A stretch of 64,000 nt of DNA from an uncultured Bacteroidota bacterium (GCA_903926385.1 CAIYIS010000025.1:4405-68404), one strand, 5' to 3'. Counted from the first letter of the stretch, positions 5,301 through 47,100 are shown. Numbers and translations: made by a program. Notes: generated by a model not told the origin, from the letters alone.

Positions 5301-5645
5301 AAGTTTATTTTTATTTGGTGTTGACTTATTTTAAATACATTTGTTTTCAATGTAAATTTTCGGAATAAATTTTTATTAGAAATAATTATTGAATTAAAAG
5401 CACTTATTAAGAATTTGAAATTTTACTAAATAAAAATTTAAGAAAAAGAAATTTATTTTTTGGTTGGAATTATTTGTTTGAAGGGTATTCAGAGAGATGT
5501 AATTCACAATTGAAGTGCGAGTTTTTTTAAATTTTATGATTGTTTTAATTATAAAAATCATTAATTATTTTTGAATTACAGCGTAAAAATATTAATAATA
5601 TTGAGATTTACAATTTATTTTAACAATTAAATTGCTTCCAAAAAT

Positions 5646-5673
5646 AAAAACCCGACATAATATCGGGTTTTTT
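5646..5673. terminator. Bidirectional rho-independent terminator hairpin (aaaaaCCCGAcataatatCGGGttttt)
   Basis: 5-bp GC stem flanked by an A-run and a T-run, immediately downstream of the stop of the minus-strand gene 5694..6626. Confidence 0.5.
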
Positions 5674-5693
5674 GTTGATGTTTAAGCATGAAA

Positions 5694-6626
5694 TTAAAAA
5701 GGTAAATCATCACTTCCATGCGGTATTTCCTCCAATTTGGATTCTGATTGTGTTGGGGTTTCATTTGATTGGTAACTTATATTCAGAATATAATCAGTAG
5801 CTTTTTGCGCAAGTGTAGAAGCATACACAATGAAACGCCTGTCGTTCTTGATTTTCTCCAACCATCCTTTCATGTCAGCTTCATTAGTTGAAAAGTGTTC
5901 TTTACCGAAACCGGCAAATGATTTTAAATAACAAGCACCAATTTCAGCCATGAATTCCTCTGTTGAATAAGGTTCTGCTCCGAATGCTTTTTGTTGCATT
6001 ACTTCTTTTCTGTTTACCCTGCTTTGGTGTCCGGTGCTGTGGACAAGCTCTACAAAGAGTTTACTGAAATAGCTTTCTTTGCTATCAAAACTTTCTTCTT
6101 TAGGAATGTTTACAAAATCAAGTAAAGGATTGTAATACGACTTGTTTTCTTTGTGTTTGATTTTTGGTAGGTTCTGCATGTGCATAATGATATCCTCACA
6201 AGCCTTTAATGGATTGTTTTGTAAATCTATCATTGGAATTTGAGTTTCAGGTATTCCATCGCATTGTGCAATGTTATATACACTGTTGTAACGAAGAAAT
6301 GGAACATTTGCTATTTGATCAGTCCCCTCGTCTTTTACTTCTAACCATTTCCAGAAAACAGTCATGTTACCTTTTTCACCTTCTTTGATTGTCGCCCCTA
6401 TTTCCTTTATCTGGTGAGAAGTCAGGAAATAGTTTTGTTCGTAACCAAGAGGATTGAGAAGCCATACATTAATTCCCCTGTAAGGTCTTCCTGTGATTAA
6501 GTTTTTAGGAAGCCCGGCATCTCCCCAAGGTTGTTGCCAAGGGACTATTCCCTTCTCAATTTGTTTTGTGATTCGGTTGTTTACCATTGCGTACACATCC
6601 GTTGTTGATGATTTTTTTTCATTCAT
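5694..6626 (-). CDS. ArdC-like antirestriction/ssDNA-binding protein (DUF1738 N-domain + zincin-like HExxH domain), copy 1
   Basis: Motifs VPWQQPWGDAGLPKNLITGRPYRGINVWLL (ArdC N-terminal domain) and HELVHSTGHQSRVNRKE (HExxH metallopeptidase-like). Paralogous to 12555..13598. Confidence 0.7.
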   Translation of the reverse strand: MNEKKSSTTDVYAMVNNRITKQIEKGIVPWQQPWGDAGLPKNLITGRPYRGINVWLLNPLGYEQNYFLTSHQIKEIGATIKEGEKGNMTVFWKWLEVKDEGTDQIANVPFLRYNSVYNIAQCDGIPETQIPMIDLQNNPLKACEDIIMHMQNLPKIKHKENKSYYNPLLDFVNIPKEESFDSKESYFSKLFVELVHSTGHQSRVNRKEVMQQKAFGAEPYSTEEFMAEIGACYLKSFAGFGKEHFSTNEADMKGWLEKIKNDRRFIVYASTLAQKATDYILNISYQSNETPTQSESKLEEIPHGSDDLPF

Positions 6627-6806
6627 TGCTTTATAGTATTAAATTGTGTGGAACTGTTTCCGAGATGTAGTATAGCTGGGGAAGAAATATATGCAATAGA
6701 CGAAAATTGCTATTTGTAGCAAGTGGTGGGGAAAAGAAATATCAATGAAATTTGTTGAATTTATAGCACTTTTAGCGAAATAATATTCACTAATAAATCA
6801 AAACAA

Positions 6807-7754
6807 ATGAACACTATTCAAAACAAGATTAAAGAATTTCTAAATCATTGTAAGTATGAAAAAAATCTAAGTAGTAAAACGATAAAGGCATATACAATAG
6901 ATTTGATGCAGTTTACAAAGTTTTTAATTGAGAAAAAATACTCTCTTGAAATATTGAATATTTCTAAAGTCGAAATTCGTGGATTCTTAGAATCAATTTC
7001 AGTTATGAAACCAAAATCAATAAAGAGGAAAATTGCAACAATTAAGGCCATGTTTAACTTCTTGGAGTATGAGGATTCAATTCTAATTAATCCATTTCGA
7101 AAAATGAGAATTAAGATTCAGGAAGAAAAAAAGTTGCCAAGAGTAATGGAATTAAAGGAAGTAAACTCTATGATGAAATTTGTGTATCGAGAAAATGGTT
7201 TATGCAAAGACTTTGATTCCTATAGCTATTCCGAAACATTAAGGAATACGGTTGTTATAGAGTTATTGTTTGCAACTGGTGCACGAGTTTCAGAAATTGC
7301 AAATCTCAGACTGGAAAATATAAATGTTTCAATTGGTGCTATAACCATTAAGGGTAAAGGAAACAAGGAGAGGATCATTGAAGTATGCAACAAAGAAACG
7401 CTTCAATTATTAAAAAGGTATCAGGGTCATTTCATTGATAAAATAACCGATTCTGGAGGCTTCTTTCTGATTAATCGTTTTGGGAACAAGCTTTCAGACC
7501 AGTCTATCCGTGGGATTGTAAAGAATGTATCAAAAAGTGTAGGAATTACAAAGCTAATTACACCGCATGTATTCAGGCATTCTCTGGCTACTCTCCTTTT
7601 AGAAAATGATGTGGATATAAAATATATTCAATCAATTTTAGGTCATAGTTCTATTATGACCACTCAAATTTATACTCATGTAAACCGCAAGAAACAAAGG
7701 CAAATACTCACTTTGAAACATCCTAGAAAGAATCTTATTATGATAGCTGATTAG
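6807..7754 (+). CDS. Tyrosine site-specific recombinase / integrase (XerD-like)
   Basis: C-terminal catalytic region: ...ARVSEIANLRLENI..., HVFRHSLATLLLENDVDIKYIQSILGHSSIMTTQIYTHV (R..H..R..Y box II signature). N-terminal SAM-like core-binding domain. Confidence 0.85.
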   Translation: MNTIQNKIKEFLNHCKYEKNLSSKTIKAYTIDLMQFTKFLIEKKYSLEILNISKVEIRGFLESISVMKPKSIKRKIATIKAMFNFLEYEDSILINPFRKMRIKIQEEKKLPRVMELKEVNSMMKFVYRENGLCKDFDSYSYSETLRNTVVIELLFATGARVSEIANLRLENINVSIGAITIKGKGNKERIIEVCNKETLQLLKRYQGHFIDKITDSGGFFLINRFGNKLSDQSIRGIVKNVSKSVGITKLITPHVFRHSLATLLLENDVDIKYIQSILGHSSIMTTQIYTHVNRKKQRQILTLKHPRKNLIMIAD

Positions 7755-7785
7755 TTTTCCTGAATGAAGGATAACTAAATATTAT

Positions 7786-8571
7786 ATGTTGTTTGCAATA
7801 GCAAAATTGATCCGTATTGAGAAGAGTATATCCAATTCACTTTCAATTTTTTTTCCGTTAATATACATTACTCGAAACATTTCTTTTAGTTTAAATTATT
7901 CTATTCCCATATTTTTTATGTTTGCGGCTGCTTTTGTCATAAATGATATAAATGATTTAGAAAAAGATAAAATCAATCATAGTAATAGAGCATTGCCTAA
8001 GAATGATATTTCTATTAATATGGCAATCATTTTATATTATTTCTTTCTTGCTGGTGCTTTATTATCAATTAAACTGACCGTTCCTTTTAATTATGTATTT
8101 ATTTACTTGCTTTATATTGTTCTGATTACGAATTATGACTATTTGAATATGGGATACCCATACTTGAAAAACCTATATGTTGTGCTGGTTTTTTCGATTC
8201 ACTTTGCAATACTGTATTTAATAATCCCAATAAATATATTTATATTGATAGGGTTGGTGATAAATATATTATGTAAGGAGATTTACATGGATATCAGAGA
8301 TATTAAAGGAGACGGAAAAACTTTTGCTAAAGTTATGGGTATAAAAAACACTGGTAAAGTAATTCTTTGTTTGCAATTTTTATTGTTGGCTTCTACATTT
8401 ACTGTACTCTATCAAGAATTTTCAATTATTCATTGTTTAGCTTTTATTATTGTTGTCATTACCTTTATTTCTAATGCTATAATTTGGTATCGATATAATG
8501 TACTTAATCTAAAATCCAACATAAATATTATTGTCTTTCAAAATTTTATTATTTATGGACTAATCTTGTGA
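7786..8571 (+). CDS. UbiA-family polyprenyltransferase (membrane)
   Basis: First Asp-rich motif FVINDINDLEKDKINHSNRALPKNDIS (NDxxDxxxD...RxLP) and second motif YMDIRDIKGDGKTFAKVMG (DxxDxxGDxxxGxKT). Eight or more hydrophobic helices. Very AT-rich codon usage. Confidence 0.65.
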   Translation: MLFAIAKLIRIEKSISNSLSIFFPLIYITRNISFSLNYSIPIFFMFAAAFVINDINDLEKDKINHSNRALPKNDISINMAIILYYFFLAGALLSIKLTVPFNYVFIYLLYIVLITNYDYLNMGYPYLKNLYVVLVFSIHFAILYLIIPINIFILIGLVINILCKEIYMDIRDIKGDGKTFAKVMGIKNTGKVILCLQFLLLASTFTVLYQEFSIIHCLAFIIVVITFISNAIIWYRYNVLNLKSNINIIVFQNFIIYGLIL

Positions 8572-9609
8572 TTATTTTAATGCTAAATCAGCAAGCATAA
8601 TAATAATCGTTATTATAAGGGGTAAATCATTAATAGCTAATCGTAGTTGATACTTCAATTCATCCCTTGATATTTTATCTTTTTCACTTAGATATTTGAT
8701 TTTCTCAAACTCGCTTATATTTTCTTTAGAGCTTAATTCTTTATTTAAAATTTCAATTTTAATATCTATTGATTTAGTATATAATTTTCTTAAAAGAGTT
8801 TTAGGATAATAATTAAAAACTATTAATACTGGCATTGCAATTATGGCAAGGTAAAACATAAATATTTTTACAGCTTGACCAAGTTCGGAACTATATTTAA
8901 ATGGACCATGATAATAACTATTAACTTGAAACCATACTGCAAGAACAGTAAATGTTGTTACTACATTTATGTAGGTTGAAATTCCTTCCAATTTATTATC
9001 ACTAAACAAATCTTCATTAAATTCAATATCCTCAATCGATTGCAACATTTGAGCAACATAGAAAATTTTTCTCCCAATATATACTGCACAACCATACATT
9101 GCACACCCATATATTATCATAGTGCTTTCCAAAAACTTATTTTCATAGGGAAACCTGGCAAAATAAAATAAAAGAAAAGAAAGTATAATGTGTATTGTAA
9201 CGATTCTCATAGAACTTTTGATTGAGAAATACGTTGTCTTGTGACGATGAAATATTTTATTCTCAGCCAACTTGGTTTCTCCGAAAACCCTAGATAATAA
9301 ATTTGGGATGTATTCTTGAGTTTTATAAATTTGATAGGTAAGCCCAAATAACAATCCTCCTGTTATAAAGCAATTAAAGCCAATAAAAAAGTCGTGTAGA
9401 TACTGATAAAACGAGTTTCTTAAAAAAATGTATGAAATTAATGAAATAATAAAACCATAAAGGAAGCTTATAAAAAAGCCAAGATAAACGGAGTTCATAA
9501 TAAAAAAAATATTTCTAGATTTGCTATCTTGTTTAGGGTCATTTAGCAACACATTATATTTCATGTATGACGTTAATTCCTTAAAGAGAGTTTGAGCAAA
9601 GTTTTTCAT
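8572..9609 (-). CDS. Polytopic membrane protein of unknown function with charged C-terminal coiled-coil tail
   Basis: 345-aa ORF with ~8 predicted TM segments, no recognisable catalytic motif. Its stop codon abuts the stop of the convergent UbiA-like gene (8571/8572). Confidence 0.4.
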   Translation of the reverse strand: MKNFAQTLFKELTSYMKYNVLLNDPKQDSKSRNIFFIMNSVYLGFFISFLYGFIISLISYIFLRNSFYQYLHDFFIGFNCFITGGLLFGLTYQIYKTQEYIPNLLSRVFGETKLAENKIFHRHKTTYFSIKSSMRIVTIHIILSFLLFYFARFPYENKFLESTMIIYGCAMYGCAVYIGRKIFYVAQMLQSIEDIEFNEDLFSDNKLEGISTYINVVTTFTVLAVWFQVNSYYHGPFKYSSELGQAVKIFMFYLAIIAMPVLIVFNYYPKTLLRKLYTKSIDIKIEILNKELSSKENISEFEKIKYLSEKDKISRDELKYQLRLAINDLPLIITIIIMLADLALK

Positions 9610-9793
9610 ATTGATAATATTTAGTTATCCTTTATTAACAAAAATCTAAAAAAATACGATTACGGCATAAATGTAAGGAAAATATAAATATCCTAAAAAT
9701 TCAATAAACGAACATAATGTATTTTGATGATATTTTATTTGCCATAATAGATTTCTTGCATTATAAATCTACTACAAGTATAATATAAATTAT

Positions 9794-10399
9794 ATGGTGA
9801 TTGATAAAAATGAATTCTTTAATAATTTTAAAAGAGCTAAATCACGATATAAAGAACTTCAAGATGTATCCATTACTTTACGTTTCGGTAAAAGTCCTTT
9901 TTTTACAATGCAAGCATTACTAGAACCAATATCACTTTTTCAAAAGAAAAAAAAATACTTTGTATTAATAAATTTGAAAAGAACAGATTTTCTTTCTCAG
10001 TTATCAGAGGATAATATTCTTGGTTGGTTTGGGCACGAATTAGCCCATATAGTAGAATATGAAAAATTGACCAATTTAAATCTTTTTGTTTTTGCAGTAA
10101 AATACCTGTTTGATTCAAAATTCAGATACTTCGTTGAACGAAGTACTAATGCATTTGCCTTCAATAATGGTTTCGCGCTTGAATTATTTTTGGTTTGGAA
10201 GAAATTTATCTCAATGGATATTAAAGATATAAATTACAAAAAGTATATACTTGAAAATTATTGTCCACATTGGGCTGACATCAAAGAAACCGCACAAAAT
10301 TTCGGCATAAGTAAACAAATTTATGAGTCAATGAAACAGACCAAGGTAGTTAATTTTAAGACTACTGCAAAGATAAAGAACAAAATTAAGTCAAAATAA
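9794..10399 (+). CDS. HExxH-motif protein, possibly ImmA/IrrE-family metallopeptidase-like
   Basis: WFGHELAHIVEYEKL (HExxH plus downstream E). It sits in a mobile element that also encodes an XRE-type HTH protein. The family assignment is an inference from the motif only. Confidence 0.35.
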   Translation: MVIDKNEFFNNFKRAKSRYKELQDVSITLRFGKSPFFTMQALLEPISLFQKKKKYFVLINLKRTDFLSQLSEDNILGWFGHELAHIVEYEKLTNLNLFVFAVKYLFDSKFRYFVERSTNAFAFNNGFALELFLVWKKFISMDIKDINYKKYILENYCPHWADIKETAQNFGISKQIYESMKQTKVVNFKTTAKIKNKIKSK

Positions 10400-10400
10400 A

Positions 10401-10434
10401 CCCCTCTTCGTATTTTAAACGATAGAGGGGTTTT
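10401..10434 (+). terminator. Rho-independent terminator (CCCCTCTtcgtattttaaacgatAGAGGGGtttt)
   Basis: 7-bp GC-rich stem plus T-tract directly after the stop of 9794..10399. Confidence 0.6.
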
Positions 10435-10456
10435 GAAATAAGGTTGAAAAATATGC

Positions 10457-10581
10457 TTCTACGTCATCGTAACGTAATGAAATCACGATTATTCAATCCT
10501 TGCTTACTATTTGAATCCCATATTCTGAAAAATATAATTCTACGTCATCGTAACGTAATGAAATCACGATTATTCAATCCT
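10457..10581. repeat. Two perfect 44-bp direct repeats (TTCTACGTCATCGTAACGTAATGAAATCACGATTATTCAATCCT) separated by a 37-bp spacer
   Basis: Copies at 10457-10500 and 10538-10581 are identical by eye. Each contains the dyad TACGT-N7-ACGTA. Confidence 0.8.
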
Positions 10582-10848
10582 AGGTATTCAATTAAATTAT
10601 ACATACTTTGAATCATTTTGCAATGTATACGCTACATCTCAACAATTTAGACAACCAAAAACACATATTTAACAAATGAATCAATTAATAATGTTGGTGT
10701 TATACCCTTGCGAAAAATCAGTAATAGCATCAGGAAGTCTAAATTATTAACATTTTTTAATGAAATAATGTTAATAATATACCAAAATTGATTTATAAAA
10801 ATCGGGAAATAACATATCTTTGTCGAAGAAAACTATCCAAATAACTGA

Positions 10849-11304
10849 ATGGACGAAAATTTAATTAAATCTTTTAAATGGGTTGGGTTACTTTTTTCAT
10901 TTGCTTTTATTACTGAAAGCCTTTGTATTTATATTAAGTACGGACTAGTGAATACCTATCCATTACCAACTGGAATTAATAGTTGGTACGAAATGGCTGT
11001 GGATATGGAAAGGTTAATGATATACTCGATAATAATCATGAGTGCCATTTTAACTGATGTGATTTTAAATCCGAACCGATTTATGACATGGAAGATATGG
11101 AGTACTTGGACAGGGTTAATATTATTAGCCTCACTTATCACCTTTTATATTCTACACAAAGTATTTGAACAAAGCTGTTTACTTAAATTTAAGCAATCTG
11201 CTCCTCGAGCTGAGGAAATTTTACATTACATCGAATCGTCTTTGCCTCTTGGGGCTTTTTTAATTTCCGTTGTGTGGAAGTATTCTATTAACGTCACAGA
11301 ATAA
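10849..11304 (+). CDS. Small membrane protein, unknown function
   Basis: 151-aa ORF with 4 hydrophobic helices. No motif recognised. Confidence 0.4.
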   Translation: MDENLIKSFKWVGLLFSFAFITESLCIYIKYGLVNTYPLPTGINSWYEMAVDMERLMIYSIIIMSAILTDVILNPNRFMTWKIWSTWTGLILLASLITFYILHKVFEQSCLLKFKQSAPRAEEILHYIESSLPLGAFLISVVWKYSINVTE

Positions 11305-11474
11305 AAAGTGTTTCATTTAATTTTAAATAGCGCTTTGTTTTTGGTAATTACTTATTTCATTTATGAATTTTTTCATGATATCAAATCCATTAAAGAAATA
11401 AAACGAAAGAAATTTAAAAGAAGGTCAACAAAGACAACTAATACGAAACTTAAAGAAAAAATATACCAGAATAA

Positions 11475-12314
11475 ATGAATTTATTATTTTTTGTTATTTT
11501 CTTTTTAGGATTCTGCACATTCTTTTTTTTAGTTTTCATTACTGACATAAAAAAATTAAGTGGATTCCGTAAAGCAGCCGCTCAAGAAAACGAATTATTT
11601 AATTTGAAAGGTGGCAATTTTAGTTATTCACATCGAATTGACTATAACGAGAAGGATGAAGGGATATTACAAACCAACATTGATCAGTACTTTAAAATCA
11701 TGAAAAACGCTATAAAAAAAGCGGAAAGTGAAATTATTATTGTTGATTATACAAAACATGGAAAACATTTAGAGAAAATTGATTCAGATATTCATTTGTT
11801 TTATAATATCTCTCGGCATTATGAAGATTATTATTGTGAATTAGAGAAAATCATCACCAATAAAGAGGTTGAATACAACAGAATAATTTGTCTTCCTCCA
11901 TCGCAAAAGAACCTTAAAGATTTAAGTAAAATTTTATATAATGCTGTAAGATATGTATTTTATGGCACTTATAAACACCTTAAAAAACTTAAAAATAATC
12001 CCAATTTTAATTTATATATCTTACCCGGCCCAATTCGGACGAATAGTTTAATAATCATTGATAAGAAAATAGTACTATTTGAGTATGATTCCTACGGCCC
12101 TAATTTAGAATGTCGACCTGATTTACTTTTTATTCATTTTGACGATAATTTAGCAACTAATGAATATAATAAGGTTAAAGAGAGGATACATAATATTTCA
12201 AAAATTAATGTCGATGATTTATTAGCGGTGTATCTTGAAAAGATAATAAATCCAAAAACTTCGGTTGACGCATTCGGCAAAAAGAATATTGCAAAAACAG
12301 ATTTGACTAAGTAA
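11475..12314 (+). CDS. Hypothetical protein with N-terminal TM anchor
   Basis: 279-aa ORF. N-terminal hydrophobic helix (LLFFVIFFLGFCTFFFLVFI) followed by a soluble domain. No recognised family. Confidence 0.4.
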   Translation: MNLLFFVIFFLGFCTFFFLVFITDIKKLSGFRKAAAQENELFNLKGGNFSYSHRIDYNEKDEGILQTNIDQYFKIMKNAIKKAESEIIIVDYTKHGKHLEKIDSDIHLFYNISRHYEDYYCELEKIITNKEVEYNRIICLPPSQKNLKDLSKILYNAVRYVFYGTYKHLKKLKNNPNFNLYILPGPIRTNSLIIIDKKIVLFEYDSYGPNLECRPDLLFIHFDDNLATNEYNKVKERIHNISKINVDDLLAVYLEKIINPKTSVDAFGKKNIAKTDLTK

Positions 12315-12552
12315 CTTGTTTTAGCTTAAATTCCCTATAGCTTTCCAAATACAACTCATTCATCAAGGTTGCATAGAGAGCACTTAACTTTATCAGATTC
12401 TCTACACTCGGCATTGCCAGCCCCTTTTCCCATTTCGAAATTCTACTCGCAGATTTTAATCCGAGTAGTTTAGCAACTTCATTTTGTTTGTATCCCATTA
12501 ACAGCCTGTGCTTCCTTAAACTATTTTTATAACGTTTAGTTTTTTTCTTCAT
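12307..12552 (-). CDS. XRE-family (Cro/C1-type) helix-turn-helix transcriptional regulator
   Basis: LLMGYKQNEVAKLLGLKSASRISKWEKGLAMPSVENLIKLSALY is a canonical HTH_3 pattern. Immediately upstream of and co-oriented with ArdC-like copy 2. Confidence 0.7.
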   Translation of the reverse strand: MKKKTKRYKNSLRKHRLLMGYKQNEVAKLLGLKSASRISKWEKGLAMPSVENLIKLSALYATLMNELYLESYREFKLKQVT

Positions 12553-12554
12553 TG

Positions 12555-13598
12555 CTATCGTTCCATTGCTACAGTCTGTTCCTCTCCTCTCTCCCGTGTT
12601 TTCTGTAAATCGTTTTCTCGGCTATTTGTTTTGTCTTTTTTGTTTGTGTCCTTTGTTGATGGTTCTAATTCTTTTTCTTCTGGTTCAATTTCTTTTTCTT
12701 TCTCCTGAATATTCAAAATATAATCAGTCGCCTTTTGTGCCTGTGAACTGGCATAGACAATAAACTTCTTATCCTTTTTCAGTTTAGTAAGCCAGTTTTG
12801 AATATAGGCAGCGTTGTTCTCCAATTTTTCAATCGGAATGCCTGCAGATGATTTCAGATAAGAAGCACCCATTTCTGCGGTTAGTTCTTCAATAGCATAC
12901 TTTTCAGAACCAAACGCATTAGCATCGGTTATTTCTTTTCTGTTTAATCTGCTTTGGTGTCCACTACTGTGGACTAATTCATGGAAGAGTGAACCGTAAT
13001 AACTTTCACTATCCTTGAAAGTTTCCATTTTAGGCATATTCACAAAGTCTTTTTCTTTGTGATAAAAAGCTTGTTGTTCTTCATGCTTAATTTCAGGACG
13101 ATTCGGCATTTCCTTGATTATCTTTTCACATTCTTGAATCGGATCATTTTGTTTTTCTGCTATAGGTGGAAGTTTTGATTCTGGTATTCCTGTACATTGG
13201 GATATGTTGAATACTTTGTAGTATCTAAGGAGTGGTTTCTTTTCAATTTTCTTTGTTTCGGGATTTTCCTTCTCTATCCATTTCCAGAAAACAATGATAT
13301 TTCCCTTCTCATCTTTTTTAATACTTCCTCCTAGTTCTTTTACCTGTTTAAAGGTCAGAAATTCGTTCTGAGAGTATTTTAGTGAGGATAACAGCCAAAC
13401 ATTAACTCCTCTGTATTTATTGCGTGTAATCAAGTTTTTTGGCTGTCCTGCATCTGCCCAAGGTTGTTGCCAAGGTACAACGCCTTTTTCAAGATGTTCA
13501 ATGATTCGGTCAGTCACCATTTGATATACATCTGGTGCTGTCTTTGGTTTTTCATTTGTGTCTTTAGTTTGATTTTGGTTTGTATTAGTTGTGGTCAT
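12555..13598 (-). CDS. ArdC-like antirestriction/ssDNA-binding protein (DUF1738 + HExxH), copy 2, with extra N- and C-terminal charged extensions
   Basis: VPWQQPWADAGQPKNLITRNKYRGVNVWLL and HELVHSSGHQSRLNRKE. Collinear with copy 1 at roughly 50% identity by eye. Confidence 0.7.
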   Translation of the reverse strand: MTTTNTNQNQTKDTNEKPKTAPDVYQMVTDRIIEHLEKGVVPWQQPWADAGQPKNLITRNKYRGVNVWLLSSLKYSQNEFLTFKQVKELGGSIKKDEKGNIIVFWKWIEKENPETKKIEKKPLLRYYKVFNISQCTGIPESKLPPIAEKQNDPIQECEKIIKEMPNRPEIKHEEQQAFYHKEKDFVNMPKMETFKDSESYYGSLFHELVHSSGHQSRLNRKEITDANAFGSEKYAIEELTAEMGASYLKSSAGIPIEKLENNAAYIQNWLTKLKKDKKFIVYASSQAQKATDYILNIQEKEKEIEPEEKELEPSTKDTNKKDKTNSRENDLQKTRERGEEQTVAMER

Positions 13599-13645
13599 AG
13601 TTTTATATTTTAAATAGGTTTATTTATTAATAATTAAATTGTCTT

Positions 13646-14300
13646 TTATCGGTCAATATCTCTTTCTTGCTCTTCTGATTTGTCTGCCCGTAAGTCCTCT
13701 AATTCCTGTTGTCTTTCTTCGGCTTTGTTGTCGGTTGGTCCGATTTCATTGGATTTTTCTGTTTCATTTTCAATATCTTTTTCTGTTTCGATATGTTTTA
13801 ACTCATAGTAATAATGAGGCGAATGACTTTTTGTTACTGGCTCCAACTCTTTTGTTTCTTTTTAGTGGCATAGTATGGAGATGGTTTTCCTTTGGTTTGG
13901 TCTGAAAATACATTTAGACTAATTTTCTCCTTTTTCTTCTTGATTTTAACCGGCAGTTTTTTTAGTGTTTTTTCAATTCCTACAATAATTTTTGTTGCTA
14001 CATGGTGATATAGGTCAAATGGTGTCCTTATCTCCTTTCGGTTTTCTTCTTTCCCTTTCATGTTTATCTTGTTTTTGAAATGACTCTACTTTTTGTTTTT
14101 GACCTTATTTCATTTAGGGATTTTTCCCGTCTTTCTAATTCAGAAGGGCTGACCATACATTCACAGTATCCTGCATCTTCTGTTTGAATTTCGGAGTAAT
14201 AAATGCTTTCGATGTTTTCTGATTCTATTTCCTGATCGTTTTGGTAACTATTGTCTTTATTGAGTTCAGTGTCCTTGGTTTTATTTTCTTCGATTTCCAT
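13646..14300 (-). other. Three consecutive small highly charged ORFs (66, 75, 78 aa). Possibly small mobilization-associated proteins or a frameshifted remnant
   Basis: ORFs 13646..13846, 13834..14061 and 14064..14300 are head-to-tail on the minus strand between ArdC-like 2 and the relaxase. Low-complexity E/K-rich sequences with no motif. Confidence 0.25.
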
Positions 14301-14329
14301 TTTTAATTTATTTAGTTCTGATTTTTTAT

Positions 14330-15175
14330 TTATCTGCTTCTTTGGATATTTCTATTATTCATTTTTTCTCTTACTCTGTTTAATTCATTCGCTCTTGTTT
14401 TTGTCTTATTCAAATCTTGTATTCTTTCTTCTGTATATCCGAGACGATTGAAACGAAATTTGTGTTTACCGAATATGATACCTGTTGTTTTACCGCTTCT
14501 GTTGTATGTTTCAATTCCGCATTCTTTTAGTTTGTTGTAAAAATCTTCTATTGAGTTCGATGCTTTGTAACATGTTTTCAGCATTCCTATAACCTGTTCC
14601 TTTTCTGATTGCCTTCCTGTTCTTAATTTAAATTGATATTCTTTATCACTCGTTACTGCTTTTTCTTTCTTCCAATGTTCTACTACTGATTTTGATAATT
14701 CAGGATAATGTTTCTGCTGGTATTCTTGTATGTCTTTTTTGAGTTTTCTGAATTCACCTTTCGACATTCGCATGGCTTTGCCTGTGTGATATTCCAGTCC
14801 TGATGCACAAATATGAATGTGGTAATGGTTTTTATCAAAATGAGGAGCGATGACATATATTCCTTTTGGGTTTCTCCTTTGAATGTATTCCCTTGCCATT
14901 GCTTCCATCTTTTCAATGGATATATGTTTTGCATCTTCTTTGTGCCAGGAAAGTATTTCATGGGTAAGGATGACACTGTCTTTTCTTTTGTGTTTCCGGT
15001 ATGTTTCATTCTTTTTAAATTGTTTCTCCCAGCTTTCTATATTTCTTCCTTTCAGATTATGCGTTAGCATAAAGGTGTTTCCTTCTTTGTCAACTAAACG
15101 GTCTTTATCATTGGTTATGTATTCAAGTAGTTTTTTGTAGTTTGGTCTTTTATATGTTTTGACTTTGACTATCAT
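14330..15175 (-). CDS. Mobilization relaxase (MOB_P-type / Bacteroides MobB-like, PF03432)
   Basis: Histidine triad HFDKNHYHIHICAS (HxDxxxxHxH). N-terminal region MIVKVKTYKRPNYKKLLEYI is typical of the relaxase family start. Confidence 0.75.
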   Translation of the reverse strand: MIVKVKTYKRPNYKKLLEYITNDKDRLVDKEGNTFMLTHNLKGRNIESWEKQFKKNETYRKHKRKDSVILTHEILSWHKEDAKHISIEKMEAMAREYIQRRNPKGIYVIAPHFDKNHYHIHICASGLEYHTGKAMRMSKGEFRKLKKDIQEYQQKHYPELSKSVVEHWKKEKAVTSDKEYQFKLRTGRQSEKEQVIGMLKTCYKASNSIEDFYNKLKECGIETYNRSGKTTGIIFGKHKFRFNRLGYTEERIQDLNKTKTRANELNRVREKMNNRNIQRSR

Positions 15176-15647
15176 TTTTTTGTAAAGGAGGATTTCTAAA
15201 GAAATTATTGATTGCCTCTTCTAATGCGGTTATCTTCTTTTCAATTTCCTCTAGTTTTCGTTGACTCTCCCAATGATATTTTTCTTTTGGTTTTACTATG
15301 CTTTGTATCTGGTTTAAACAGTCAGAAAGGATTTGTTCTAAATACGCTATTTGCTCAGGATACGGGACAACAAAGGTCTGACTGATATAGGCAAGCACCG
15401 CCTGATGAATAAATCGGGTAATGGTCATTTTATGCCTTTCTGCCTCCCTCTGTACTTTGTCGTATTCCCCGTTATTTGAAAAATTAACGGTGAATTCGGG
15501 TTTACTTTTCCGTTGTTCCTGCTTGTATTTCAAAAGGTATTCTTTTCGATATGTCTTTTTTGCAAACTTGATTTCTTCGTCTGTTCCGTTTTCCAATACT
15601 CCTGTTGACTCCAGATATTCCCACATCTTTCCTGTTCGATTACTCAT
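15150..15647 (-). CDS. Relaxosome accessory protein (MobC/ribbon-helix-helix family)
   Basis: KMTITRFIHQAVLAYIS-type C-terminal motif. Overlaps the relaxase start by 26 bp and the T4CP end by 8 bp, suggesting a translationally coupled operon. Confidence 0.5.
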   Translation of the reverse strand: MSNRTGKMWEYLESTGVLENGTDEEIKFAKKTYRKEYLLKYKQEQRKSKPEFTVNFSNNGEYDKVQREAERHKMTITRFIHQAVLAYISQTFVVPYPEQIAYLEQILSDCLNQIQSIVKPKEKYHWESQRKLEEIEKKITALEEAINNFFRNPPLQKNDSQSQNI

Positions 15648-17085
15648 TGTCTTTCTTTTTAAGTGGTAAAATCGGTATGATCTCCATATTTGCAGATGTC
15701 TCTATTTCTTTGGGTGGAATCAAACTGTATTTTAAATAATGGCTTCGTTTGTAATATGGTTTCAGTCTTGCCATGATTGGTGGTTTGTTTCCGCAAATGA
15801 GTAATGCTCGTGTTTCTTTCATTGTTCGTATTTCATCGTTGGTCATTAAGGGTCGTACTACTTTTACTTTCTTGTCATTTTCGTATTCATATTTACCGAG
15901 TGTTTGTTCTAATTCTTTGGATGTTTCCAGTGATGTTCCTGTAAAATACATCTTAGCAAAACAGTTTGCTTTGATTGCATCTCCGTCATTTTTTCCATAG
16001 TGGTGAATGAGCTGACTGAAATCTTGTACCAAGAGCATTATTCCCGAACGGTGTTTTCTGACATTGGCAACTGCTAGTGGAAGGGTCGGAAGATTGAGTG
16101 AGGAGGCTTCATCTATTAAAAGAAAAATGTCTTTTTCATTTTGATTTGGAAAACGGGAAAGCAGAAAGGCAAAGAATTGTTCGAAGAAAAGGGACGTAAG
16201 AACGCTATAATATTTTTGATCGGCAACGGAGTTTTGAATATACAGGGCTGTTGGTTTGTCTCTGAATTCCTGTAAATTCAGATTATCCTTTGAGGTTACT
16301 TTGGCTACTGCTTCATCATTAAATATTTGAAGTGCTGCCTTACAGGTGGCAATTACTCCGCTTCTTACTTTTTCATCATAAGCAATGAAAGATTTGTATT
16401 CGGCAAATAATACCTCATCTGCATGTTTACTGAAAAGCGCATCTACTGATTCGGGATTGCCTCCTAATTGGTTTAACAGTTGTCTGACATTATATAGGTT
16501 TTGATATTGGACTTCTTGTTTCTTTAGAATGGTAATGAGCATGGCAAGTAAGGAGCTGGATTGTGTATTCCAGAAAGGGTCTTTGGTTTTACCTCCCAAA
16601 GCTGTTTCAACTAGCATGGATGCTACCTTTTGAATTTCAGAGGATGAGTTCGCACGTTGCAGTGGATTGTAACCGGAAGATTTTTCAGGTTTTGCAAAGT
16701 TTAATACTTTAATGTCATATCCTTTTTGTTGCAGGTATCCTGCACTTTTGGAAAAGAGTTCTCCCGATGGGTCGTGTATGACAAAACTTCCGTTCATAGA
16801 GTACAGGGATGGGAAAAGGACAACGCTAGATTTTCCTGTTCCTGTTCCTCCTACTATCAAGGCATTTTGGTAGGATAGCTTAATACTTAAATTCCGTGTG
16901 CCTGTTAAGCAGAAACCGAAATATCTTCGTGATAGTAATGTTCCCTGTCTTACAAATTCCGCATTGTACTCATTTTTCTTTTTAGGTATGGCTGTAATGG
17001 CAAAGGTGATGAGTTCTACTAATAGTTTGAAAAAACTTTCAAGTAGTTTGATTAATAGGGTAAAGAATTGTTCGATGATTATCAT
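15640..17085 (-). CDS. Type IV coupling protein (VirD4/TraG/MobC family ATPase)
   Basis: Walker A VGGTGTGKSS, Walker B LLIDEASSL, and a LLVQDFSQLIHHYGK motif. N-terminal TM anchor. Confidence 0.75.
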   Translation of the reverse strand: MIIIEQFFTLLIKLLESFFKLLVELITFAITAIPKKKNEYNAEFVRQGTLLSRRYFGFCLTGTRNLSIKLSYQNALIVGGTGTGKSSVVLFPSLYSMNGSFVIHDPSGELFSKSAGYLQQKGYDIKVLNFAKPEKSSGYNPLQRANSSSEIQKVASMLVETALGGKTKDPFWNTQSSSLLAMLITILKKQEVQYQNLYNVRQLLNQLGGNPESVDALFSKHADEVLFAEYKSFIAYDEKVRSGVIATCKAALQIFNDEAVAKVTSKDNLNLQEFRDKPTALYIQNSVADQKYYSVLTSLFFEQFFAFLLSRFPNQNEKDIFLLIDEASSLNLPTLPLAVANVRKHRSGIMLLVQDFSQLIHHYGKNDGDAIKANCFAKMYFTGTSLETSKELEQTLGKYEYENDKKVKVVRPLMTNDEIRTMKETRALLICGNKPPIMARLKPYYKRSHYLKYSLIPPKEIETSANMEIIPILPLKKKDNE

Positions 17086-17279
17086 TTGTATCGTGTATTA
17101 GTTGGTTTGGTAATAATGAACTGCAGGAATAGGTTGATTTGTTGTAAGGTAAGTTCTGCTAATCGCAGGACTCCCCATATACATATCACAATCAGTTTCA
17201 GGATAATTTTCAGGATGGTCCAAAGGATATTTTTCATTGTATTTTCTTTTTAAGGTTCTACTTCATTCTTTTTTGTTTT

Positions 17280-17993
17280 CTATATATTCAGGTTTGCAGA
17301 GATGGTTACGGTTGCTCCTTTATTTTGTAAAATCGTTTTGTAAAATTCAGAAGCGATTTTAAAGTCCGAATCGCTTTCAGGGTTTACGGGTTGAAAGACA
17401 AAATGTATTTCAATTCCTTTTAAATCCTGTATTTGTTGCATTTGCTCCAATTGTGTTTGTATTGACTCTGGTTTTGTTTTGAGAATCTTAATGGTCTGTT
17501 TATTATAAAAAGACAATTCCTTTGTGTTTTCCATTAAGTCGGAGTAAATAATCAATACTCTTTTTTGTGAATTACTTCGACTTAATTGGTTTAGCTTTCG
17601 TACCAATGGGAGATAGATAGAAGAGTTCCGTTTACCTATCGTGTCTTTATTACTGTTTTCAATAATTTTGGTTGCCCGATTCTTGAAATTTTTGATTTCC
17701 TTTTCTCTTTCCAGTTCATTTGATAACCATTGATTTTGTATATTAATCTTTGCTTCATTGATTGGGTTATAACTGACATCTGTAATATTCCCAAAAGAAA
17801 AGTTTGATCCATTCCATTGATTGTTTTGTAAATCAAAAAGGCTGAGAATTTCATCGGCATTTGGTTTGGCTATACTCTTTTCGGTGACATCTCTCAATAC
17901 AACGATTTCAGTTGTGGTTGGTTTTACGGATGTGCAGGACACAATGAACATTATTGCTATTAGTGTGATAATGATTATGGATGTAGTTTTCAT
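17280..17993 (-). CDS. Lipoprotein of unknown function (element cargo)
   Basis: Signal peptide plus lipobox MKTTSIIIITLIAIMFIVSCTS. No catalytic motif. Confidence 0.45.
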   Translation of the reverse strand: MKTTSIIIITLIAIMFIVSCTSVKPTTTEIVVLRDVTEKSIAKPNADEILSLFDLQNNQWNGSNFSFGNITDVSYNPINEAKINIQNQWLSNELEREKEIKNFKNRATKIIENSNKDTIGKRNSSIYLPLVRKLNQLSRSNSQKRVLIIYSDLMENTKELSFYNKQTIKILKTKPESIQTQLEQMQQIQDLKGIEIHFVFQPVNPESDSDFKIASEFYKTILQNKGATVTISANLNI

Positions 17994-18003
17994 TTTTGTT
18001 TTA

Positions 18004-19059
18004 TTAAAAGGTTATAGTGATAATGTCAGGTTCTGAGACTTGTTGTGAAAAGCATTCGGGTATAATTTTGTCTGTACGGTACATCAGGTTTGTTGATTTG
18101 AATATTTCTAAGGTTTCAAAATACATTTTACGTATTCTGTCATTCGCTGAATTGGCATAGTGAATTACTCGAAGTCTGTCCTTGGTTCTTTCTAAAACCG
18201 TTTTCTTGATTTCTTGTCTCTCCTGTTTTAGTTTACCTATCTCTTTCTTCCGTTTATTAATTCTTTTTAGTGTTAATAGATGCTGTGTGTTTTGTTTTAT
18301 TTCAGTCCATGTCGGAAGGATGAAGAAGGATAGAAAAGCTGAAACGATAAAGAAGAAGAGGTTTACTACAACAAAATAGGACGGGTTGATATGTACTTCA
18401 TGGTCGGCTAGGTATTCTGATCTGAATATGGCCAGTACAGAAAATACGATTGTTACAAAGGTTAGACAACCGAAAAGTATAAGTCTTCTTTGTAGGGTTG
18501 TTTTCGCTCCTTTATACAAAAAGGTGGAAAAATGGGCGAATGCTAACACGGCTACTGATACTGAAAAGGAAAGGATAAGGGCAAACAACATGCTTTCTCC
18601 TGTAACTTGAAATGCTTTTGTATTAAATATGATTTCTCCTAAGGTGACGATAAGGGACAGAATTCCTGCCCAAATCATTCTTTTTACGATACTGCCATGA
18701 TTAAAATTTCCCATTTCGTATTCATCGTTTCGGTTGTTGTCTTCTCTGACCTTTATCTCATTTTCAAGGTTTTTGTCCTTTTCCTTAAAAAAGTCCGCAT
18801 CCATTTTGGCTTCCGGGAAATGTGCCTCCGGTTGTAAATAATGCATTACCTCACTTGCGAGTTTTTCATACCCCGCTTTTATCTCTCCTGTGTAATGTGA
18901 AATGTTATCACTTTCAGGTGCTGGTAGATTTTGCCTCGCAAAATGTTTTGCATTTTTCCTTGTTTGTTCTTTTAGTTCAGAATCTCTTTTCTGAATCATT
19001 TCTTCCAATACTGTATCTTGGATACTGCCGGAAGCAATTGTGATTGCTTTAGTGTTCAT
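18004..19059 (-). CDS. Membrane protein with central TM bundle and C-terminal coiled coil, unknown function
   Basis: 351-aa ORF with ~4 TM helices (aa ~120-250) followed by a K/E-rich helix. Last gene before the element end. Confidence 0.4.
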   Translation of the reverse strand: MNTKAITIASGSIQDTVLEEMIQKRDSELKEQTRKNAKHFARQNLPAPESDNISHYTGEIKAGYEKLASEVMHYLQPEAHFPEAKMDADFFKEKDKNLENEIKVREDNNRNDEYEMGNFNHGSIVKRMIWAGILSLIVTLGEIIFNTKAFQVTGESMLFALILSFSVSVAVLAFAHFSTFLYKGAKTTLQRRLILFGCLTFVTIVFSVLAIFRSEYLADHEVHINPSYFVVVNLFFFIVSAFLSFFILPTWTEIKQNTQHLLTLKRINKRKKEIGKLKQERQEIKKTVLERTKDRLRVIHYANSANDRIRKMYFETLEIFKSTNLMYRTDKIIPECFSQQVSEPDIITITF

Positions 19060-19106
19060 TTTTTATTTAGATTAAGGATTAATAAATCGTATTTTTGCGA
19101 AAATTG

Positions 19107-19138
19107 GAGTGCGGACGAAGTGCGGAAACAGAGTGCGG
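19107..19138 (+). repeat. Three direct AGTGCGGA repeats spaced 11 and 13 bp, putative integrase/excisionase arm-type sites
   Basis: ggAGTGCGGAcgaAGTGCGGAaacagAGTGCGGAaatg, located ~70 bp inside the element end next to the tRNA fragment. Confidence 0.5.
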
Positions 19139-19206
19139 AAATGTTCAATTTCGCTCTTTTTTGCATACTTAGATGCCTTGATTTTAGGGCTATTTCAGGG
19201 GGTATA

Positions 19207-19253
19207 ACAGACTCATAATCTGTGGGTGCTTGGTTCGATTCCAAGTGGGCCCA
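19207..19253 (+). tRNA. tRNA-Met(CAT)-like 3' half (anticodon arm + variable loop + T arm + 3' acceptor strand); no matching 5' half, so an att-site remnant rather than a gene
   Basis: Anticodon stem ACAGA/TCTGT with loop CTCATAA (U33, CAT, A37). T arm CTTGG-TTCGATT-CCAAG. 3' acceptor TGGGCCC plus discriminator A. Upstream sequence cannot form a D arm or a complementary acceptor 5' strand. Confidence 0.6.
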
Positions 19254-19257
19254 CTAA

Positions 19258-19296
19258 AGGGAAGGAAAGCTTAGAATAGCTTCTTTCCCTTTTTTG
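19258..19296 (+). terminator. Imperfect hairpin + T-tract terminator following the tRNA fragment
   Basis: GGGAAGGAAAGC-ttagaata-GCTTCTTTCCC-tttttt. Confidence 0.45.
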
Positions 19297-19330
19297 TTTT
19301 AATTTTGCAACAATACTTAACCATTAAATC

Positions 19331-20377
19331 ATGCTAGAAAATACAGAACGTACCGAATTAAGTTCTCTTGGAGAATTTGGATTGATAAAACACCTTACTG
19401 AGTTTATTGAAATAAAAAATGAAAGCACCATAAAAGGTGTGGGTGATGACGGAGCTGTGATAGACTATAAAGGTAAACAGATGGTAGTGTCTACAGATAT
19501 GTTAGTGGAAGGAGTTCATTTCGACCTTTCGTATGTTCCGCTTAAACATTTAGGATTTAAAGCCGTTTCGGTAAACCTATCTGACATTTATGCAATGAAT
19601 GCAACACCGAAGCAGATTACTGTATCGCTTGCCATCTCCAACAGATTTTCTGTTGAAGCCATGGAAGAATTGTATGCAGGGATGATGCTGGCATGTGAAA
19701 AACATAAAGTAGATATTGTTGGAGGTGATACAACCACAAACAAATCGGGATTGGTAATAAGCATAACAGCATTGGGAGAAATCTCCCCCGAAGATGTTGT
19801 GTATCGCAATGGTGCAGGTGAAGGAGATTTGTTGTGTGTAACCGGTGATTTGGGAGGAGCTTATGTAGGATTACAACTGCTGGAAAGAGAAAAAAGAATT
19901 TTTTTGGAAACACCAAATGTTCAACCTGATTTAGGAGGTAATGATTACATCCTAGAACGTCAACTTAAACCTGAAGCACGAAAAGATATTCCTGTTTTAT
20001 TAAAAAAACTGGAAGTAAAACCCACTTCCATGATTGATATTTCGGACGGACTGGCATCCGAAATACTTCATCTGTCAACTCAATCGGATGTAGGGTGTAA
20101 TTTATATGAAGAAAAAATCCCAATTGATCCGCAAACGTATAACATGGCGCGTGAATTTAACCTCGACCCAACTGTTTGTGCTTTGAGCGGAGGAGAAGAT
20201 TATGAATTATTGTTTACCATCAAACAATCTGATTTTCCTAAAGTAAAAGCCAATCCTGACATTTCGGTAATAGGACATATGACTAATAAAAAAGATGGAG
20301 TAAATTTAATTACAAAAGGAGGCTCTTCGCATCCGCTTACTGCCCAAGGTTGGGATTCGTTGCTGAATAAAAATTAG
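19331..20377 (+). CDS. thiL: Thiamine-monophosphate kinase
   Basis: GDDGAVIDYKG...VVSTDMLVEGVHF...VSVNLSDIYAMNATP...DIVGGDTT is an AIR-synthase-related ThiL signature. Confidence 0.8.
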   Translation: MLENTERTELSSLGEFGLIKHLTEFIEIKNESTIKGVGDDGAVIDYKGKQMVVSTDMLVEGVHFDLSYVPLKHLGFKAVSVNLSDIYAMNATPKQITVSLAISNRFSVEAMEELYAGMMLACEKHKVDIVGGDTTTNKSGLVISITALGEISPEDVVYRNGAGEGDLLCVTGDLGGAYVGLQLLEREKRIFLETPNVQPDLGGNDYILERQLKPEARKDIPVLLKKLEVKPTSMIDISDGLASEILHLSTQSDVGCNLYEEKIPIDPQTYNMAREFNLDPTVCALSGGEDYELLFTIKQSDFPKVKANPDISVIGHMTNKKDGVNLITKGGSSHPLTAQGWDSLLNKN

Positions 20378-24267: not shown

Positions 24268-24330
24268 CCATTCACCCTGCCAAAAGTACCATTCACACCC
24301 CCTAAAGTACCAAATTCTAAAAGTGCCCCC
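24268..24330 (+). repeat. Repeat element copy A (CCATTCACCCTGCCAAAAGTACCATTCACACCCCC + degenerate third unit), starting 5 bp after the LytTR gene stop
   Basis: 35/35 identity with 28527-28561. Internal 9-bp direct repeats AAAGTACCA-12 bp-AAAGTACCA, and a further AAAGTGCCC. Confidence 0.75.
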
Positions 24331-28526: not shown

Positions 28527-28576
28527 CCATTCACCCTGCCAAAAGTACCATTCACACCCCCAAAAGTGCCGAATTC
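28527..28576 (+). repeat. Repeat element copy B in the divergent promoter region between the plug-like gene and the ECF sigma gene
   Basis: CCATTCACCCTGCCAAAAGTACCATTCACACCCCC is identical to copy A, followed by AAAAGTGCCGAATTC. Confidence 0.75.
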
Positions 28577-46987: not shown

Positions 46988-47100
46988 GTTTTGTCAATTT
47001 GAAAATTAAACAATTTGAAAATTTGAAAACGAATTAAAATGATACACCAACTGAAATGCGATCTGCATTTTCAAATCAGTACCTATTTCAAATTGTCAAA

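Follow-up and report, generated by a model that had tools for sequence, protein, structure and literature searches.

A probable attR junction left by a mobilizable island in a tRNA-Met gene of an uncultured Bacteroidota bacterium

The subject of this report is a junction near position 19.2 kb of a 64,000-nt stretch of DNA, hereafter the window, from an uncultured Bacteroidota bacterium (GCA_903926385.1, CAIYIS010000025.1:4405-68404). We conclude that the segment 19060-19299 is very probably the right attachment site (attR, with the architecture P-O-B') of an integrative mobilizable element (IME) inserted by a tyrosine integrase into the tRNA-Met(CAU) gene between a HAD-hydrolase gene and thiL of a Bacteroidia-like bacterium, with five arm sites predicted to be bound by a 475-amino acid (aa) integrase. 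The junction is recombinant and its partner sites exist: empty sites, the opposite junction (attL) and a shared segment of 49 bp all agree with the attR architecture that a first-pass annotation, made from the sequence of the window, had proposed for this locus. In a freshwater or environmental lineage of uncultured Bacteroidota, the junction fixes precisely where a mobile island ends on one side.

The junction and its partner sites

To characterize the tRNA-like sequence at the junction the whole window was scanned with ARAGORN and Rfam, with relaxed Rfam thresholds for the score of the fragment. ARAGORN called no tRNA anywhere in the window, this locus included, as the first-pass annotation had anticipated for a truncated gene, and no Rfam family reached its gathering score. 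On the plus strand, positions 19207-19253 comprise the anticodon arm (ACAGA/CTCATAA/TCTGT), variable loop, T arm and 3' acceptor strand of a tRNA-Met(CAU). The earlier identification of this interval as the 3' half of a tRNA-Met gene was therefore correct, and its extent needs to be widened by one base at each end, as the block of identity to the intact gene is 49 bp long, starting at the anticodon stem and extending a single base beyond the discriminator. The Rfam tRNA model scores 27.1 bits on the fragment against a gathering score of 29 and aligns well solely from the anticodon arm onward, with the D stem and three of the seven acceptor pairs unformed. In the 27 nt that precede the fragment just 7 positions match the real 5' half of the tRNA, in line with the claim that neither a D arm nor a 5' acceptor strand precedes it. 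The window holds no other tRNA piece longer than 12 nt, and neither a second copy of the fragment nor a tRNA 5' half.

Contigs that encode exactly the ThiL protein of the window fall into two classes, namely island-bearing contigs, which are identical to the window (L001), and two island-free contigs, L002 (JGI 3300021354) and L003 (ENA ERZ27300129). Both island-free contigs show a HAD-hydrolase gene in the place of the island, followed by an intact 75-nt tRNA-Met(CAU) called by ARAGORN, the same terminator as in the window and thiL, whose product is 100% identical; they are the island-free relatives, with thiL directly behind an intact tRNA, whose existence had been predicted. In blastn comparisons the window matches L002 and L003 with 99.97-100% identity over 3.7-5.9 kb, starting exactly at 19206, and the sequence upstream of the equivalent point in these contigs has no match anywhere in the window. 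The short-read contigs L004 and L005 begin at 19210 and 19226, within the repeated segment, as expected for a repeat or a polymorphic junction. On the chromosomal side the succession of tRNA terminator and thiL was also read properly from the outset: the hairpin at 19256-19292 with its T-run folds with -19.1 kcal/mol (z = -3.7), and the gene behind it is a clear match to the ThiL family (Table 1). Strains that are otherwise nearly identical differ in whether they carry the island, an indication that it has been mobile recently.

The contig with the opposite junction, L010 (ENA ERZ27313325), was reached through the HAD protein of the empty site and comes from the same sample as L001. In the orientation of the window it reads HAD gene, complete tRNA-Met (ARAGORN), a terminator supplied by the element, two copies of GGAGTGCGGAAAT and the stop codon of the 475-aa tyrosine integrase, with 120 nt between the end of the integrase gene and the tRNA. 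An intact tRNA-Met marking attL had been predicted, and the one found here has both the adjacent integrase and the same 49 bp as the window (AACAGAC...GGGCCCAC; L010 4830-4782 against window 19206-19254, 100% identity). On the left side, the flanking sequences of L010 and L002 agree over 4.8 kb with 99.7% identity. Read from their sequences, the three sites are assigned as attB = B-O-B' (L002), attL = B-O-P' (L010) and attR = P-O-B' (window). The attP site reconstructed from them is 336 nt long. Three of its arm repeats precede the start of the core, at -98, -87 and -74, and two follow the end of the core, at +88 and +101, all five in one orientation. At the tRNA 3' end the copy of the element encodes CCA (L010 4780-4782), followed by the element's own terminator hairpin, where the native gene has CTA (L002 9925-9927). 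A scan of JGI metagenomes for the exact pattern of the B arm with the tRNA 5' half returned the empty-site contig alone, and the Logan contigs break inside the 49-bp repeat.

These arrangements suggest the following course of integration. The attP site of the element would carry a 49-bp copy of the tRNA gene from the anticodon stem to the 3' end, and strand exchange between attP and attB would most probably take place in the 7-nt anticodon loop, with the inverted stem arms as core-type sites. We place it there in view of two related loci introduced below (L045 and L020), in which the tRNA-like block of attR or attP starts 1-2 nt before the loop, and of what is known of tRNA-targeting integrases. 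The 5' half of the chromosomal tRNA gene would thereby be joined to the 3'-half copy brought by the element, yielding a complete tRNA at attL beside the integrase gene, and this regenerated tRNA would receive the terminator of the element and its encoded CCA. At attR there would remain the displaced 3' half of the original gene with its terminator and thiL, as is observed in the window. The N-terminal domain of the integrase is likely to bridge the three P-arm repeats, the two P'-arm repeats and the core in an intasome, as in lambda.

The arm repeats, the integrase and its clade

Within the 64 kb of the window the 8-mer AGTGCGGA has exactly three copies, which start at 19108, 19119 and 19132 and are all on the plus strand, against 0.61 copies expected by chance. 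The copies are spaced 11 and 13 nt apart and lie 98, 87 and 74 nt upstream of the core, so that a triple 8-mer repeat 70-100 bp inside the element, as originally described, is indeed present. We corrected for the selection of this motif by counting, in the window and in 200 first-order Markov simulations, every place where 35 nt hold three copies, without overlap, of any non-trivial 8-mer. The window has only two such places; the simulations average 0.025 per 64 kb, and 5 of the 200 contain any. The second cluster of the window is an AT-rich run at 46996-47029 with three copies of AATTTGAAAA. A terminator-like hairpin overlaps the third arm repeat (Table 1); its 3' arm looks like the repeat in inverted and degenerate form, and in L020 a comparable hairpin (GGTGC...GCACC) lies at the third repeat.

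The 475-aa integrase is encoded outside the window, at L010 3233-4660. It has 111 homologues at E <= 1e-20, and the few of them whose source is named come nearly all from uncultured Bacteroidota. Pfam recognizes in it a Phage_int_SAM_5 domain (33.8 bits) and a Phage_integrase domain. Across 39 aligned homologues the residues R293, K322, R403, H425 and Y435 are invariant, their catalytic roles being assigned by alignment position alone. In the same alignment the N-terminal residues C27, C30 and C48 are invariant and C38 is nearly so; this cluster, within residues 22-50 of the predicted arm-binding domain, suggests a zinc-stabilised variant of that domain. An AF2 model of the protein (mean predicted local distance difference test score, pLDDT, 85.5) shows a beta-sheet with a helix at residues 15-94, a disordered linker at 95-114, a core-binding domain at 122-221 and a catalytic domain at 247-466. 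When this model was compared with the PDB using Foldseek the top matches were full-length chains of lambda Int (E = 6e-12, 385-456 aligned columns); a PDB sequence search with the integrase alone gave nothing useful, and a profile search recovered weak matches to lambda Int (E about 0.01). The modelled architecture is that of a heterobivalent, arm-binding tyrosine integrase (PMC8138268). A small open reading frame (ORF) of 116 aa, with a homologue in L020, overlaps the start of the integrase gene and could encode a recombination directionality factor (RDF), possibly a DNA-binding one; scans against Pfam, NCBIfam and PHROGs gave no family support for such a role, and Pfam gave none for the 116-aa protein or an 81-aa protein as an excisionase.

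A GTDB scan with the single integrase sequence returned no relative, and a rescan based on the alignment recovered 29 loci in Bacteroidota metagenome-assembled genomes. In 14 of these 29 loci a tRNA gene lies 80-250 nt beyond the integrase stop codon, on the opposite strand, and these tRNAs are Leu-UAA, Leu-CAA, Leu-GAG, Met, Thr and Arg. Comparison of the region behind the integrase gene showed that: 1) tandem repeats of the form RGTGCGGAAA follow the integrase stop codon clade-wide, irrespective of the target tRNA, and exactly two copies of RGTGCGG lie within 160 nt of the stop codon in 15 of 31 clade loci. 2) In L018 and L019, whose integrase is 61% identical to that of L010, the order is stop codon, AAGGTGCGGAAAC and GAGGTGCGGAAAT, terminator, tRNA-Met and HAD gene. 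3) The most divergent members have other tandem repeats at the same place, namely GGTGTCAGAA in L035 and GGTGTTAT in L044 and L045. 4) L045 is a complete 7.7-kb element in an Ekhidna chromosome, at whose far end a tRNA-Thr 3' fragment begins 1 nt before the anticodon loop, with two copies of GGTGTTAT about 90 nt inside. 5) L020 (55% integrase identity) shows an uninterrupted attP-like site, in which three repeats, about 80 nt, a tRNA 3' fragment, a terminator, three further repeats and the integrase gene follow one another; its P-arm repeats are spaced 11 and 13 nt apart, exactly as in the window. On the opposite side of this attP, L020 encodes homologues of the 351-aa protein, 237-aa protein, coupling protein, 165-aa protein and relaxase of the window, and the contig w39PUk0k has a matching gene order as judged by Pfam families and gene lengths only.

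From these comparisons the repeat motif tracks the integrase rather than the tRNA target and occupies both arms, which fits sites of the arm type for the integrase and speaks against an operator specific to the mobilization operon. The three P-arm 8-mers are thus most likely arm-type integrase sites, a role that the first-pass annotation had suggested for them along with excisionase binding, and that their recurrence on the other arm and their conservation across the integrase clade support. The gene orders likewise indicate that the integrase and the mobilization module at the right end belong together. We put about even weight on the wider proposal that the site belongs to an undescribed clade of lambda-like integrases from uncultured Bacteroidota, characterized by a four-Cys arm-binding domain, an arm code of RGTGCGGAAA spaced 11/13 nt on both arms and a core retargeted among tRNA-Met, -Leu, -Thr and -Arg, and driving mobilizable islands that encode a coupling protein and defence-rich cargo. 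If that is true, the clade could supply modular integration tools for Bacteroidota. Together with attL, the junction provides a complete attP/attB pair (336-bp reconstructed attP, 49-bp core, five arm sites) and a clade-wide arm-site consensus, which could be used for automatic annotation of islands or for tRNA-targeted integration vectors for Bacteroidota.

Two further observations concern the related elements. In L020 (11700-12000) and w39PUk0k the order integrase, attP, 351-like protein, coupling protein and relaxase lies inside contigs of 42-57 kb, with the uninterrupted attP itself seen in L020 and the gene order alone in w39PUk0k; these may represent tandem arrays, secondary-site insertions or extrachromosomal forms. 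The cargo of related elements includes NACHT proteins and a Gabija-like pair of an OLD-type ATPase and UvrD, and L018 carries SIR2 and TIR proteins.

Extent of the island and alternative explanations

The window corresponds to positions 6400-70399 of the ENA ERZ27313323 contig k141_500588 (81,763 nt). To the left of the first ArdC gene this contig encodes a 2685-aa adhesin of the type IX secretion system (T9SS), a 341-aa T9SS protein, a C-terminal fragment of an MFS-like protein and an IS21-family insertion sequence, with IstA and the first 122 residues of IstB, where its sequence stops. The attL contig terminates with the last 107 residues of IstB, beside an N6-methyltransferase gene truncated by the end of the insertion sequence. 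In orientation and frame the two IstB pieces fit a single bridging IS21 with about 30 residues missing. The IS21-family element (IstA of 516 aa, and IstB) maps to L049 11460-13594 and L010 1-420 and has several terminal CATTTCGGAGCAAATTGAGCA repeats. If one IS21 bridges the contigs, the island measures about 30.6 kb (4.83 + about 0.09 + 6.40 + 19.25 kb), in place of the roughly 13.6 kb or more first estimated. Either the interior of the island has been remodelled, or the window holds a rearranged copy, a remnant cut off from the end with the integrase.

Several points weigh against the assignment given at the outset, as a whole or in part. attL and attR are on different contigs and are linked through IS21 sequence. 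The genes on the two flanks of that IS21, the truncated N6-methyltransferase gene (N6_Mtase') and the MFS-like C-terminal fragment, are mutually unrelated, and there is no target-site duplication around it, which suggests IS-mediated rearrangement or two separate IS copies. Look-ups with the integrase and with the 351-aa protein gave no attP or circular contig of this element, integrated contexts alone being returned. Binding of the repeats by the integrase is a step that we infer from the sequence. The Pfam Phage_integrase score of the integrase, 24.8, falls just under the gathering score of 27.1, and the RKHRH pentad lacks conservation at its first His, with a Lys at R403-3.

One alternative is that the junction is a fossil, of an island whose left part with the integrase and attL was lost, or was separated by a deletion or rearrangement ending at 5493. 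The attR would then be stranded and no longer recombining, and the attL contigs would belong to co-occurring strains or to a remote part of the genome. We regard this as possible, though less likely than not. The bridging IS21, lacking a target-site duplication and lying between two unrelated truncated genes, is in its favor, as is the behavior of assemblies around 5493: the Logan contig L008 continues to the left of this point with 46 nt of unrelated sequence (GCCGTTAATTAAAGCAACTGATGATTATTCCAAGGCAGGATATCCA; 21 codons), which has no match in the window or in any compared locus, and in sample ERZ27313325 contigs end or start at 5484 and 5452. Moreover, the block to the left of 5493 resembles chromosomal adhesin clusters of a related species, which contain a homologous pair of adhesin and 341-aa genes and have no mobile-element genes nearby. 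On the other hand, the N- and C-terminal halves of IstB fit one copy of IS21 in orientation and frame; the 341-aa gene is found, where samples are listed, in ERZ27313323, ERZ27313325 and ERR4195038, all of which have island genes, with JGI not being a source; and the middle of related elements is highly variable cargo, so that the adhesin block could itself be cargo. A stranded junction would in any case leave the identity of the site as attR unchanged.

The 2685-aa adhesin (PKD_5, Por_Secre_tail) occupies 3-5330 of the window on the minus strand and continues at L049 1896-9953; together with the 341-aa protein it separates the two island halves. Positions 1-4500 of the window, which take in most of the in-window part of the adhesin gene, have a GC content of 38-46%, against 25-39% over 5500-19000. 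We also considered, and rejected, an attL at the 5.4-kb position, as the window contains no second tRNA fragment or 5' half.

A different question is whether the AGTGCGGA repeats serve another protein, as operators or as sites for an excisionase or RDF, for a relaxosome or oriT protein, or for a repressor of the operon of the 351-aa protein, coupling protein and relaxase. Such a role is conceivable given that the repeats precede the start codon of the 351-aa protein by 47-80 bp, in the same 146 bp that must hold the operon promoter, that the conserved 116-aa ORF overlapping the integrase start could encode a DNA-binding RDF, and that the function of the repeats as integrase arm sites is itself a prediction from sequence. 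We nevertheless consider it unlikely, since the motif, in the same orientation, is also present on the opposite arm, immediately behind the integrase gene and far from the mobilization operon; this position behind the stop codon is conserved clade-wide, including loci that show the integrase end alone, and the motif differs in the most divergent integrases. Sites for directionality factors are, furthermore, classically confined to one arm, as for lambda Xis. We retain arm-type sites of the integrase as the preferred reading of the repeats.

Finally, there is a negligible probability that a tRNA gene decayed here to a pseudogene, or that the likeness to a tRNA arose by chance, with no mobile element involved, because the weak full-length Rfam alignment that could favor it (19187-19253, with four acceptor pairs formed from GGGC) faces 48 tRNA bases 100% identical to the intact gene against the 7 of 27 before them, a sharp breakpoint at 19206 and an intact 5' half joined to the second 49-bp copy beside the integrase. 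We rejected the GGGC...D-arm-like part of that alignment as a decayed 5' half on the grounds of the same sharp breakpoint and of the real 5' half at attL.

Gene content of the island and its surroundings

Table 1. Features of the junction, the island and the chromosomal flank in window coordinates.
Feature	Position	Strand	Basis or remark
Breakpoint	5493..5493	.	Left side: adhesin promoter region in most assemblies, different sequence in L008
ArdC-like protein, copy 1	5694..6626	-	About 66-73% DNA identity to copy 2
315-aa Xer-like tyrosine recombinase	6807..7754	+	Pfam, NCBIfam; below XerC and XerD cutoffs
Invertible cassette, 1.86 kb	7755..9644	.	31-nt inverted repeats flank convergent genes for a UbiA-family protein and a 345-aa membrane protein
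ArdC-like protein, copy 2	12555..13598	-	Pfam ArdcN and MPTase-PolyVal
MobA/VirD2-type relaxase	14330..15175	-	Pfam Relaxase 8.9e-17; 53% identity to L020 homologue
165-aa conserved protein between coupling protein and relaxase	15150..15647	-	54% identity to L020 homologue
VirD4-like type IV coupling protein	15640..17085	-	Pfam T4SS-DNA_transf 4.7e-56; NCBIfam conju_CD1115 244 bits against a cutoff of 250
237-aa putative lipoprotein of the conserved module	17280..17993	-	46% identity to L020 homologue
351-aa membrane protein, first gene of the conserved right-end module	18004..19059	-	L020 homologue at the same position relative to att, 34% identity
P arm of the attachment site (element DNA from the 351-aa gene start to the core)	19060..19205	+	Identity to island-free contigs stops at 19205/19206
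Three tandem repeats, putatively arm-type: GGAGTGCGGAcg / cgaAGTGCGGAAA / cagAGTGCGGAAAT	19106..19144	+	Non-random; motif recurs at attL and across the clade
Terminator-like hairpin GCGGAAATGTTCAATTTCGC with T-run	19135..19164	+	Overlaps third arm repeat
49-bp core or direct repeat AACAGACTCATAATCTGTGGGTGCTTGGTTCGATTCCAAGTGGGCCCAC	19206..19254	+	Displaced 3' part of tRNA-Met(CAU); 100% identical to L010 4830-4782 and to the intact tRNA in L002 and L003
Anticodon loop CTCATAA	19212..19218	+	Between inverted stem arms ACAGA (19207-19211) and TCTGT (19219-23); probable strand-exchange (overlap) region with core-type sites
Native intrinsic terminator of the tRNA-Met gene, B' side	19256..19299	+	Fold and T-run; identical sequence in empty sites
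thiL (thiamine-phosphate kinase), chromosomal flank	19331..20377	+	TIGR01379, 305.7 bits against a cutoff of 184

The right end of the island is occupied by a module for mobilization, made up of the genes for the 351-aa and 237-aa proteins, the coupling protein, the 165-aa protein, the relaxase and ArdC (Table 1), and this module is conserved together with the integrase clade. In w39PUk0k a 361-aa protein takes the position of the 351-aa membrane protein, a correspondence that is based on gene lengths only. The 165-aa protein has no family match in Pfam or NCBIfam and is possibly a relaxosome accessory factor. Among the proteins scanned from 5.7-19.1 kb of the window and 1-4.7 kb of L010 none matched the VirB4/Tra families of the mating pore, and, given a single IS21 copy, the missing stretch inside it is too short for a mating-pore system. 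With a relaxase, a VirD4-like coupling protein and no mating-pore genes seen, the element is classified from its gene content as an IME. As the mating-pore genes were not seen, its transfer would need a helper conjugative element, a dependence that is part of the definition of IMEs (PMC5704250).

Of the genes that the first-pass annotation ascribed to the island, the two ArdC genes, the relaxase gene and the coupling-protein gene were all recovered; the recombinase in the window instead flanks an invertible cassette, and the integrase is encoded beyond the window. The two ArdC paralogs have the same orientation and are 6.93 kb apart, and may result from the accretion of two elements or from an internal duplication. 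PADLOC and PHROGs searches with the island proteins of unknown function gave nothing beyond 'integrase' and one marginal PHROG of unknown function. Between the genes for a 201-aa and a 151-aa cargo protein there is a 56-nt direct repeat (10445-10500 and 10526-10581), whose copies are 96% identical and lie 81 nt apart from start to start.

The inverted repeats of the cassette, at 7755-7785 and 9614-9644, share a 19-nt core, AAGGATAACTAAATATTAT, which is present nowhere else in the window. In L006 the junction is flipped, so that the end of the recombinase gene meets the start of the 345-aa gene, and L007 ends at the left inverted repeat, at window position 7785; from these contigs the cassette appears to invert in natural populations. 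The 315-aa recombinase is most likely the invertase of this adjacent cassette, and inversion would toggle which of the two convergent membrane-protein genes, that of the UbiA-family protein or that of the 345-aa protein, lies downstream of the recombinase gene, an arrangement that looks like a gene-swap phase switch. Neither protein has a PADLOC match. We had also considered the 315-aa recombinase as the integrase of the island and rejected it in preference to the 475-aa protein beside attL. On the chromosomal flank a 50-nt sequence occurs at 24268-24317 and again at 28527-28576 with 94% identity, both copies being intergenic.

Comparison with known systems

That a regenerated tRNA gene and a displaced fragment mark the two ends of an island is a general principle (PMC4383910), and the junction is of a textbook kind, adding nothing conceptual to the established model of tRNA-targeted integration. 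Its closest parallels are the islands and prophages of the anticodon-loop sublocation in tRNA genes (Williams 2002, as cited in PMC6764341; Islander database, PMC4383910). It shares with them a tRNA 3' copy carried by the element, a regenerated gene beside the integrase, a displaced 3' fragment at the other end and a symmetric anticodon stem-loop as the likely crossover site. It differs from them in no principle, its specific features being the tRNA-Met gene between the HAD gene and thiL, the uncultured Bacteroidota host and the 49-bp repeat.

Lambda Int and its attP, the heterobivalent paradigm, resemble the present system in the three-domain integrase and in that each arm carries short direct repeats, some 75-100 bp away from the core. 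They differ from it in that here the arm motif is RGTGCGGAAA, the target a tRNA gene and the element a mobilizable island, not a phage. To our knowledge the N-terminal cluster of C27, C30, C38 and C48 is absent from lambda Int.

Among Bacteroidota elements, NBU1 and NBU2 integrate at the 3' part of tRNA genes, NBU1 with a short common core at the extreme tRNA 3' end, against the 49 bp from the anticodon stem onward here. The present element has in common with them and with Tn4555 its own relaxase, the absence of a mating pore and mobilization that would depend on a helper, and differs from them in its own VirD4-like coupling protein and in ArdC. These three elements, of the IntCTnDOT subgroup (PMC8138268, PMC5704250), also share with it a Bacteroidota host and a core-binding domain of the Phage_int_SAM_5 type, a likeness of domain type rather than an assignment of the 475-aa integrase to IntCTnDOT by profile or phylogeny.

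A further parallel is the 10K genomic island of Riemerella anatipestifer (PMC6764341), likewise from the Bacteroidota. This island, of about 10 kb, lies next to a tRNA gene (Arg there), has direct repeats of about 50 bp at both ends (53 bp and perfect there) and encodes a tyrosine integrase beside the tRNA (IntN1-like there), the two integrases being likened by description. It differs from the present island in its tRNA and cargo, and both its excision and its integration have been shown experimentally.

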